Positions 24,001 through 25,746 of a stretch of DNA of 64,000 nucleotides are shown piece after piece; the first letter of the stretch is position 1, and each line of letters begins with the position of its first letter. Position numbers and translations under genes: made by a program. Source of the stretch: Escherichia coli (lineage in GTDB: Bacteria; Pseudomonadota; Gammaproteobacteria; Enterobacterales; Enterobacteriaceae); the NCBI RefSeq assembly GCF_030013205.1, contig NZ_CP122648.1; one strand, given 5' to 3'. The notes under the pieces were generated by a model. That model saw nothing but the letters and a program-made list of their open reading frames with translations, ran no database searches and had not been told where the DNA came from.

Positions 24001-25012
24001 CCTGACGGGGTTGATGTCGCTGTCGCGTAAACCGGAGGAGACATGGTACGGGTGGGACGGCGACAGGCTGACGACGGTGCAGACTGACACCACGCGTATC
24101 CAGACGGTGTACCAGCCGGGAAGCTTCACGCCGCTCATCAGAATCGAAACAGACGTGACCGAACTGGAGAAAGCGCAGCGGCGAAGCCTGGCGGAGAAGT
24201 TACAGCAGGAAGGGAGTAAAGATGGTCACGGCGTGGTGTTCCCGCCTGAACTGGTGCGGCTGCTGGACAGGCTGGAGGGGGAAATCCGGGCAGACCGTGT
24301 GAGTGACGAAAGCCGGGCGTGGCTTGCGCAGTGCGGGCTGACGGTGGAGCGGCTGGCGGCACAGATCGAGCCAGTTTATTTGCCTGAGCGAAAAATACAT
24401 CTTTATCACTGCGACCACCGGGGACTGCCGCTGGCGCTTATCAGTACTGAAGGTGCAACGGAATGGCGTGAGGAGTATGACGAGTGGGGGAATCAGCTTA
24501 ATGAGGAGAACCCGCATCATCTGTTCCAGCCATACCGCCTGCCGGGGCAGCAGTACGATGATGAATCGGGGCTGTGCTATAATCGTTATCGTTACTACGA
24601 GCCGTTACAAGGGAGGTATATTACACAGGACCCGATTGGGTTAAATGGGGGGTGGAATTTATATAAATATCCGCTGAATCCAATAAATTATGCAGATCCT
24701 CTTGGCTTAGCCGTAGATATAAACCACTTCCCAGTCAACGAAGACATACGAAATTATGCAGAGAAAGTTTGGAATAATCCTAATATCATTACAATTGGAA
24801 CACATGGTGATCCTCAATCAGTATATGATGAAAATTATAATAAGATAGATGTCAAGACATTAGCTAATGAGGTTCGAAATCATCCTAAATTTAAACCTGG
24901 AATGTCAGTAAGACTGTTATCCTGTAATACAGGAAAAGGAAATAACTCTTTTGCACAGCAATTGGCAGATGAACTAGGTGTGAGAGTCTATGCTCCTGAC
25001 CAATATGACTGA
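21020..25012 (+). CDS. Rhs-family polymorphic toxin: conserved core with YD repeats plus variable C-terminal toxin tip
   Basis: 1330 aa; [11 protein letters not shown]... Rhs N-terminus, many YD repeats, core-end motif [27 protein letters not shown], then an AT-rich divergent tip; TGA at 25010-25012 is followed by 38 in-frame sense codons to TAG 25127-25129. Confidence 0.9.
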
Positions 25013-25131
25013 TACTATTCAAATGGTAAGGTAGAGCCTTGGGGAGGATTCTATGATGCAAACAATCAATTGCAAATGGACACGAATCAGCCTGGACATG
25101 AGTTTACATTCAAGCGAAGGAAACCATAGGT

Positions 25132-25746
25132 ATGAGGTATTTTCTCTTTATATTTATAACAATCCCCCTTATCTCTGGAGGTCATATGAGTAATGATAGC
25201 GAAAAGATAATATCAACATATTCGCTCAATTTTTTATCACCAGATGATGTGAGGAAAGAAGAACTTAAGGCATCACAAGGTGATAGTGATGCTGCATTTA
25301 AATTGTACAAATATTACCTTTTTTGCGAGCCAAAATCATACAGAAAACAGCACGAATGGTTAATAATATCGGCAAATAATGGAAATGCTATAGCTCAATA
25401 TAACTTATCAAGAGAACTTGAGTCAGAAGGAAAAGTAGATGAATCAATACAATGGCTGAAAAAATCAGCGGAACATGGTAATAATTATGCACAATATCAG
25501 ATGTCAAAATATTTATTAAAAATAGGTGATATTAGAGGATCGGAATATTATCTAAACTTATCTGCGGATAACGGATGTGTATTTGCAATAAAAGATATTA
25601 TCAAAAATATGATGGATAGTGGAAGGTACGATGACGCCCTCATTTGGGTTGAAAAATTGAAAAAATTGTATCCTGACACAAATACCGAACTTTACATACA
25701 AAAAATAACGCAGAAAAAAAGCAATCCAAATAATAATTATATATAA
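25132..25746 (+). CDS. putative Rhs immunity protein (Sel1/TPR-like repeats)
   Basis: AT-rich 204 aa ORF starting 3 nt after the downstream in-frame TAG; repeated A-x-Y-x-(L/M)-S motifs; position typical for rhsI. Confidence 0.55.
   Translation: MRYFLFIFITIPLISGGHMSNDSEKIISTYSLNFLSPDDVRKEELKASQGDSDAAFKLYKYYLFCEPKSYRKQHEWLIISANNGNAIAQYNLSRELESEGKVDESIQWLKKSAEHGNNYAQYQMSKYLLKIGDIRGSEYYLNLSADNGCVFAIKDIIKNMMDSGRYDDALIWVEKLKKLYPDTNTELYIQKITQKKSNPNNNYI

Follow-up and report, generated by a model that had tools for sequence, protein, structure and literature searches.

A probable recent nonsense mutation truncates the predicted clan-CD peptidase tip of an Escherichia coli Rhs toxin

The window studied here, a stretch of 64,000 nucleotides from Escherichia coli (contig NZ_CP122648.1 of RefSeq assembly GCF_030013205.1), contains an rhs gene whose open reading frame (ORF) ends at a TGA, whilst the same frame stays open beyond it, up to a TAG lying next to a putative immunity gene. 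This raises the question of whether the TGA is the natural end of the toxin or a lesion within it, and of what kind of toxin is encoded. An earlier note, made from the letters alone, had proposed that the ancestral toxin ended at the TAG, that the TGA is a recent nonsense mutation and that the tip is caspase-like. Taking the explanation as a whole, we consider it very likely that the gene encodes a clan-CD Rhs toxin payload which is intact in an allele with TGG at this site and is TGA-truncated and decaying here.

The ORF runs from N- to C-terminus through a short PAAR-like motif, DUF6531 (Pfam E 9e-21), a YD-repeat shell and the RHS core-end domain (PF03527, E 4.5e-13) into residues 1-100 of the toxin tip. 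The PAAR-like motif covers 30 residues and its Pfam PAAR matches are non-significant (E 0.25-0.56). DUF6531, the YD shell, the core-end domain, a DPxGL motif, a tip of different base composition and a downstream immunity gene are the features of Rhs/YD-repeat polymorphic toxins, and all are present. The turn to AT-rich sequence past DPLGL that the earlier note had pointed out was confirmed by measurement: the guanine plus cytosine fraction drops from ~0.60 in the Rhs core to 0.33-0.40 from ~24600 onward. Homologous tips likewise start directly past DPLGL or DPWGL, with a [GAL]VD[IL]N motif. Within the tip, the His codon of IITIGTHG lies at 24803-24805 (Rhs residue 1262) and the Cys codon of VRLLSCNTG at 24923-24925 (residue 1302), exactly 40 residues apart. 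The TGA is followed by 38 sense codons (25013-25126), the TAG (25127-25129) and the ATG of the immunity gene at 25132. The positions given earlier for DPLGL, the His, the Cys, the TGA, the 38 codons, the TAG and this ATG all match the sequence. At the local base composition, 38 stop-free codons are expected by chance with a probability of ~5%, so by itself the open frame is merely suggestive. The features of the locus are as follows.

21020..25012, plus strand: truncated Rhs ORF, 1330 aa (from the ORF list and its translation; the K_EC180 gene is identical in RefSeq)
22013..22014, plus strand: point at which 72 nt of the intact allele (24 codons, about one YD repeat) are deleted in frame, flanked by 7-nt microhomology AGATGCG
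24695..24709, plus strand: DPLGL, autoproteolysis motif at the end of the Rhs core; the next codon, 24710, begins the toxin domain
24710..25009, plus strand: retained residues 1-100 of the 139-residue predicted clan-CD (C80/DUF4347-like) toxin domain
24803..24808, plus strand: candidate catalytic His-Gly, H1262-G1263 of Rhs and H32-G33 of the domain, after beta-strand 26-30 (DSSP on the model; conservation)
24923..24925, plus strand: candidate catalytic Cys, C1302 of Rhs and C72 of the domain, in S-C-N-T-G, after beta-strand 66-70 (DSSP on the model; conservation)
25010..25012, plus strand: premature TGA; ancestral codon TGG for Trp, W101 of the domain and codon 1331 of Rhs (N3 alignment, allele counts, family conservation)
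25013..25129, plus strand: orphaned 38 codons and original TAG, coding for the last four beta-strands of the model (99-102, 108-115, 121-128, 131-134)
25132..25746, plus strand: Sel1/TPR-like putative immunity gene (weak Pfam matches; BLASTP homologs beside related toxins)
25714..25720, plus strand: poly-A run, A7 here and A8 in the intact allele, a -1 frameshift of the immunity tail

To see what other strains carry at the TGA, we compared the 1.2-kb tip and immunity region across complete E. coli genomes. It was found in 91 of 5426, always on the chromosome and at an identity of at least 99%, and alleles were counted from exact matches of a 61-mer probe centred on the TGA site, in TGA and TGG forms. 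The sense codon TGG was present in 72 of the 91 genomes, from humans, dogs, poultry, cattle and the environment and including O121 and O166 strains. The TGA form was present in 18, and among the matches listed all TGA-form genomes came from swine (enterotoxigenic E. coli (ETEC), O139:H1 and other pig isolates). In the TGG strains, N3 among them, the RefSeq coding sequence (CDS) of Rhs runs through to the position of the window's TAG. A 241-bp alignment against N3 contained one differing base, which makes TGG in N3 of TGA here; a comparison over 1201 bp showed only two differences, the G-to-A change at the TGA site and one A fewer at 25714-25720. The proposal that the toxin once ended at the TAG is thus borne out by the TGG majority, by the N3 coding sequence and by homologous domains that continue past the truncation point. 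The reading of the TGA is decided by two facts, namely that orthologs have TGG and that homologous domains span the equivalent of the 38 codons. The view that the TGA is a derived, recent nonsense mutation of a TGG Trp codon by a single G-to-A change is largely supported by these comparisons. Host and strain names suggest that the TGA allele has a single origin, in a pig-associated lineage.

Next, the part of the protein lost to the TGA was placed within its family. An indexed, word-based homolog search returned only nine relatives of the tip, and an exhaustive profile search was needed for the full family. The relatives from the first search, at 41-47% identity, extend beyond the truncation point, have Trp at the TGA position and share a C-terminal G..x.F.P motif. 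The exhaustive search recovered 3540 cluster representatives at E ≤0.001 (clusters at 50% identity), and the proteins with this domain at their C-terminus were Rhs, PAAR, contact-dependent inhibition (CDI)-like and LXG-like proteins. Of 116 C-terminal instances, 107 reach profile position 131 or beyond out of 142; a few have shorter tails but nonetheless keep the terminal motif. Only two end at position 105 or earlier, and both are fragments of the same E. coli tip. Intact orthologs ending at the TGA, which would have spoken for a natural stop, did not appear; no natural member of the family ends at the truncation point. Among 150 full-length instances, the most conserved positions fell on both sides of the TGA: H32 (99%), G33 (99%), C72 (99%), T74 (90%) and G75 (97%) upstream, and W101 (85%), G106 (97%), G129 (98%) and F134 (90%) in the part removed. 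By this sequence evidence, the lost 39 residues (W101 and the 38 codons) belong to the toxin domain. They comprise four predicted beta-strands and four of its most conserved positions, and the truncated toxin is thus almost certainly inactive.

The enzyme class of the tip was assessed from its fold. Individual sequence matches were sparse: PDB searches with the tip sequence and with the family profile gave nothing below E 0.25, and the Pfam family Peptidase_C80 (PF11713) matched neither the window tip nor, at E ≤0.001, any of 49 individually scanned relatives (7 of 49 at E ≤0.1). DUF4347 (PF14252) did not match the window tip either, whilst 3 of the 49 relatives matched at E ≤0.001 (best 2.7e-7) and 11 at E ≤0.1; one of the 49 had a Pfam C13 match. 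The tip family thus appears from sequence to be a sister family or distant member of DUF4347. An AlphaFold2 model of the tip with its 38-codon extension, built from a 49-sequence alignment, reached a predicted local distance difference test score of 97.6 and a predicted template modelling score of 0.90. Searched against the PDB with Foldseek, this model gave as its top 14 matches cysteine protease domains (CPDs) of the C80 family only, and further structural matches named were legumain, caspase-9, metacaspases, separase, glycosylphosphatidylinositol (GPI) transamidase and clostripain. Neighbours in the AlphaFold database included the intact E. coli and Shigella tip and paralogous E. coli O157 Rhs tips at 33-37% identity; others were annotated as Peptidase C80, DUF4347 or gingipain domain.

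The predicted fold is an alpha/beta/alpha sandwich superposable on solved clan-CD enzymes. The tip also has the His-Gly...[Ala/Ser]-Cys order of the clan, with His before Cys and each at the C-terminal end of a hydrophobic strand: DSSP placed strand 26-30 just before the His and strand 66-70 just before the Cys, and resolved residues 99-134 into four strands. The fold prediction that the earlier note had called for therefore returned a protease-like clan-CD core, and the His-before-Cys arrangement that it had seen is upheld by the model, the Foldseek matches, the strand placement and the 99% conservation of both residues. Its term caspase-like stands for the clan-CD fold but not for the nearest relatives, which are C80 CPDs and DUF4347 proteins rather than caspases proper. 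Taken together, the assignment of the tip as a clan-CD cysteine peptidase domain, with C80/DUF4347 as its closest branch, is supported by the model, and Cys-dependent protease activity would be expected from the sequence. A preprint on Stenotrophomonas that mentions 'C80' proved irrelevant, since the label there denotes a nuclease cluster.

The gene downstream has the position of an immunity gene, with 2 nt between the TAG and its ATG at 25132. Pfam matches to its product were weak (Sel1 E 0.72, TPR_19 E 0.13), RefSeq names it TPR or Sel1, and its homologs in the indexed database were near-identical E. coli proteins only. At related loci, however faintly annotated as Sel1, the genes 0-14 nt downstream of Rhs-type toxins encode homologous Sel1 proteins (pairwise BLASTP E 1e-11, 1e-9 and 3e-6). 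The first 18 codons (25132-25185) encode a leader that is hydrophobic and signal-like, MRYFLFIFITIPLISG, and ~9 nt upstream of the ATG lies a Shine-Dalgarno sequence, AAGGA. The Sel1 homologs beside related toxins share a hydrophobic N-terminal leader, in one case with a classical lipobox, LAGC. RefSeq (PGAP) starts the protein at ATG 25186 (182 aa), and the leader is lost. The start at 25132, as first proposed, is better supported by the leader-bearing homologs and the Shine-Dalgarno sequence, and the RefSeq start is probably 18 codons too short, omitting an export signal. The immunity protein would then be exported, and because both it and its homologs bear an export signal the most likely site of toxin action is the periplasm or cell envelope, a placement that stays uncertain here. 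Conserved gene adjacency suggests that the Sel1 protein neutralises its cognate toxin. A second putative immunity family, of ~118 aa, goes with CDI/LXG-type toxins (L009 1715-2068, L017 5748-6110 and L019 4132-4491); it has an N-terminal CxxC...CxxC zinc ribbon and a conserved C-terminal I[EQ]P.FP[YH] motif, with only a faint Zn_ribbon match in Pfam.

We also checked for further lesions in strains with the TGA. Compared with N3, the window's Rhs lacks 24 residues after residue 332 and has five substitutions. The corresponding 72-nt deletion, whose status was read with a junction probe for individual strains and not as a genome count, is present in the window and in K_EC180. EC556 has the TGA, an A8 run and a 1354-aa CDS, and therefore lacks the deletion; EC581 likewise has the TGA without it (probe match split over 132 nt). 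The shortening of the poly-A run to A7 changes the immunity C-terminus from ...QKKKQSK* to ...QKKSNPNNNYI*. The A7 allele was found in 14 of the 91 genomes, all swine ETEC or O139:H1 strains; among the matches listed, strains that appear for both A7 and TGA carry both lesions, from which A7 appears fully nested within the TGA lineage. An immunity variant of 224 aa (P0158) has another tail again, and the homopolymer at 25714-25720 seems to be unstable or error-prone. Two strains, W13-16 (O139:H1) and ETEC1701, have an IS1 insertion at ~24682, just before DPLGL (L015 1583-2314). The most economical order of events is TGG to TGA, then the 72-nt deletion and the poly-A loss, then IS1. The locus has a sense codon at this site in orthologs, a frame running on to the ancestral stop, loss of conserved sequence and further lesions in the mutant lineage, which are the marks of a nonsense pseudogene. 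This is progressive pseudogenisation of the toxin with the immunity ORF still open, and amounts to ordinary gene decay.

Autocleavage at the core-end motif is established for Rhs proteins generally. In the mechanism we propose, the intact payload would be freed from this Rhs shell by such cleavage past DPLGL and delivered into neighbouring bacteria, where its His-Cys dyad, H1262/C1302, would cleave a target, whilst the producer would be protected by the Sel1-repeat protein encoded 2 nt downstream. In this strain's lineage, the G-to-A change at Trp codon 1331 (TGG to TGA) would remove the last 39 residues, and the retained open immunity ORF would still guard against kin with the intact allele. 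Genes for delivery were sought nearby, and no vgrG or type VI secretion system (T6SS) genes were found near the Rhs locus; related Rhs proteins with this tip are encoded directly after VgrG and PAAR or DUF2169 genes.

Several points weigh against this reading. Toxicity, protease activity and immunity are read from sequence for every member of this exact family, and the window tip itself has no significant Pfam or NCBIfam match. The juxtaposition of the H32 and C72 side chains in one pocket is predicted from the fold match. T6SS delivery is assumed by analogy; the PAAR match is non-significant and the route is an assumption. The leader is missing from one Sel1 immunity homolog (L014), and where the toxin belongs to a second subfamily, found on CDI-like, LXG-like and prePAAR carriers, its partners are small cytoplasmic Zn-ribbon immunity proteins, so a periplasmic site of action would not be general. 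The single origin of the TGA allele is suggested by host and strain names rather than by phylogeny. Finally, low-level misreading of UGA as Trp occurs in E. coli, and traces of full-length, wild-type toxin are possible.

A more far-reaching form of that last point, in which the TGA is leaky or programmed, with Trp or selenocysteine read in, and a functional full-length toxin is still made, perhaps tuned low, is very unlikely. It draws on the 38 downstream codons being intact and identical to those of the TGG allele, on the retained immunity ORF and on the fact that Trp insertion at UGA would give back the exact wild-type residue, but identity over 38 codons is expected of a recent mutation anyway. 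The Rfam scan found no selenocysteine insertion sequence or other element near the TGA, folding of the downstream RNA revealed nothing unusual (z -1.4), and the stop context UGA-U is an efficient terminator in E. coli. Moreover, most strains have TGG, which marks the TGA as derived and not as a conserved recoding site, and the same lineage has gathered more lesions, as expected under relaxed selection. That the TGA is a sequencing or assembly artefact is barely credible: it occurs in 18 independent complete assemblies (Korea, Japan, France, USA and elsewhere) and outside any homopolymer, despite being a single-base difference with, nearby, a poly-A length difference of the type that long-read assemblies often get wrong.

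We also consider it quite unlikely that the 100-residue truncated tip is still a working toxin or enzyme, with its C-terminal 39 residues dispensable or regulatory, for example as an inhibitory flap. H32, C72, their three helices and the core strands all lie upstream of the stop, and RefSeq still annotates the ORF as a CDS. W101, G106, G129 and F134 rank however with the most conserved positions, no natural member stops at this point, the lost residues are four strands of the predicted fold, and the CPDs of MARTX and TcdA/B toxins need a C-terminal beta-flap for an ordered active site. The nested secondary lesions, including a gene-disrupting IS1, also speak against purifying selection. The idea that the clan-CD domain is no toxin, and is instead a self-processing or release peptidase or a non-proteolytic enzyme such as a transamidase or ligase, with the Sel1 protein as an adaptor, is unlikely as well. 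In its favour are the internal copies of the domain, 3-7 per giant multi-domain protein, which Zhang et al. 2012 (PMC3482391) read as processing peptidases; clan CD also includes GPI transamidase and peptide ligases, and the Sel1 Pfam match is weak. The same authors nevertheless call the C-terminal versions toxins. The tip here is an extreme C-terminal module right after the Rhs autoprotease motif, where no further release peptidase is needed, and dedicated small genes of two conserved families lie 0-14 nt past C-terminal versions, the hallmark layout of toxin and immunity genes. The structural relative Tce2 is toxic in yeast in a Cys-dependent manner. A clan-CD toxin payload truncated by a recent TGA thus remains the explanation we prefer.

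The surroundings of the gene were also inspected. The islet consists, in order, of a tRNA-Asn gene, two frameshifted integrase genes, a small helix-turn-helix gene, a hypothetical gene, Rhs and the immunity gene, with yeeN, amn and shiA beyond. The tRNA-Asn gene and the two frameshifted integrase genes suggest that the islet is a degraded integrative island. The window has four tRNA-Asn genes (11250-15557 and 37842-37917), and the islet adjoins the one at 15482-15557. Further on (L004), IS1 interrupts a glycosyltransferase gene, and a gene for an Ig-like adhesin carries a frameshift. The only Rfam match, to manA-II at 25978-26134 in AT-rich sequence separating the immunity gene from yeeN, scored 30 bits against a gathering threshold of 100 (E 0.015) and is probably due to chance.

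Related loci elsewhere showed the domain in other settings. In a bovine strain (L020 4001-5149), only the last 383 codons of Rhs remain, under the PGAP name 'DUF8616 domain-containing protein', and cbl/nac instead of yeeN adjoin the islet. DUF8616 may be a newer Pfam name covering this tip. In a marine metagenome (L005 1-4837), a homolog (P0003) is a free-standing 169-aa cassette that starts inside a DPLGL-type junction and sits in an array with Imm26 and DUF4329 genes; its immunity gene begins at the base directly past the toxin's TAG. The arrangement resembles an orphan toxin-immunity array. In giant proteins, 3000-6800 aa long and apparently actinobacterial (P0010-P0017, P0020 and others), the domain recurs internally in 3-7 copies ~450-1200 residues apart, in keeping with the proposal by Zhang et al. 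2012 that modular toxins process themselves at several sites.

Pseudogenisation by such a truncation is routine, and the locus offers an ordered snapshot of toxin-immunity decay in which the toxin was struck first and the immunity gene kept. The more useful outcome is the definition of a very large, compact domain family with a confidently modelled clan-CD fold and two recognisable immunity families. No member of the tip family has been characterised as an antibacterial toxin. An intact E. coli allele, such as that of strain N3, and the natural loss-of-function variant form a ready-made experimental pair, and the family with its exported Sel1 partner is moderately interesting as an experimental opportunity. 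As a tentative extension, which we hold to be possible but less than even in likelihood, the intact allele may be the first interbacterial toxin of caspase fold for which an immunity family is defined: a minimal, 139-residue, C80-like and inositol hexakisphosphate (InsP6)-independent enzyme, acting in the periplasm or envelope and blocked by exported Sel1 proteins, some of them lipoproteins.

How does the tip compare with known systems? The antibacterial cysteine-peptidase toxins described to date, Cpe1 (PMC12136450) and StbD-CT (a C39 peptidase; bioRxiv 10.64898/2026.05.07.723447), act between bacteria and have cognate immunity proteins. They differ from the tip in having a papain/C39 fold of clan CA, with Cys before His, and in acting in the cytoplasm, on GyrB and ParE. 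This fold rules them out as relatives, and the likeness is one of analogy, not homology. The tip of E. coli O157:H7 EDL933 RhsA has been modelled as TcdA-like, with a 132-aa Sel1/TPR putative immunity protein, z5018, encoded downstream (PMC7216683). It is a paralogous tip and not the same allele; that work is in silico only, and its authors took the tip for a toxin that inhibits GTPases and not for a CPD-like protease.

The C80 CPDs of the Vibrio cholerae and Vibrio vulnificus MARTX toxins and of Clostridioides difficile TcdA/TcdB lie internally in anti-eukaryotic toxins, as autoprocessing domains of ~200-250 residues that InsP6 activates. By contrast, the tip domain has 139 residues, is terminal and is paired with a bacterial immunity protein. 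To our knowledge, InsP6 is absent from bacteria, and autoprocessing induced by InsP6 is unlikely to be relevant where the target is bacterial. The closest T6SS-linked relatives with experimental data are Tce1 (PA0256, DUF4347; PDB 9qpe) and Tce2 (PA2372), effectors of the Pseudomonas aeruginosa H3-T6SS that are TcdB-like and of which Tce2 is Cys-dependently toxic to yeast (PMC13323088). From the tip-family profile they are undetectable by sequence. Unlike the Rhs tip, they are Hcp-loaded cargo, have no identified immunity gene, and are reported to be non-toxic in E. coli, without antibacterial effect and likely anti-eukaryotic (PMC13323088).

The nearest match is the 'Tox-Caspase' class of Zhang, de Souza, Anantharaman, Iyer and Aravind 2012 (PMC3482391), caspase-like domains with conserved H and C which are regarded as toxins if they form the C-terminus and as processing peptidases if they lie internally or in arrays. 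The class was predicted by computation only, and its target, activity and immunity family are left undefined there. The tip resembles it in its caspase-like fold, in its conserved H and C, in its C-terminal-most position in Rhs, T6SS, type VII secretion system and other polymorphic toxins, and in the internal arrays of giant actinobacterial proteins. With an H/C domain at the extreme C-terminus and an adjacent immunity gene, the tip can thus be placed as a new member of this predicted class, matched by the features described for it rather than by the published alignment.

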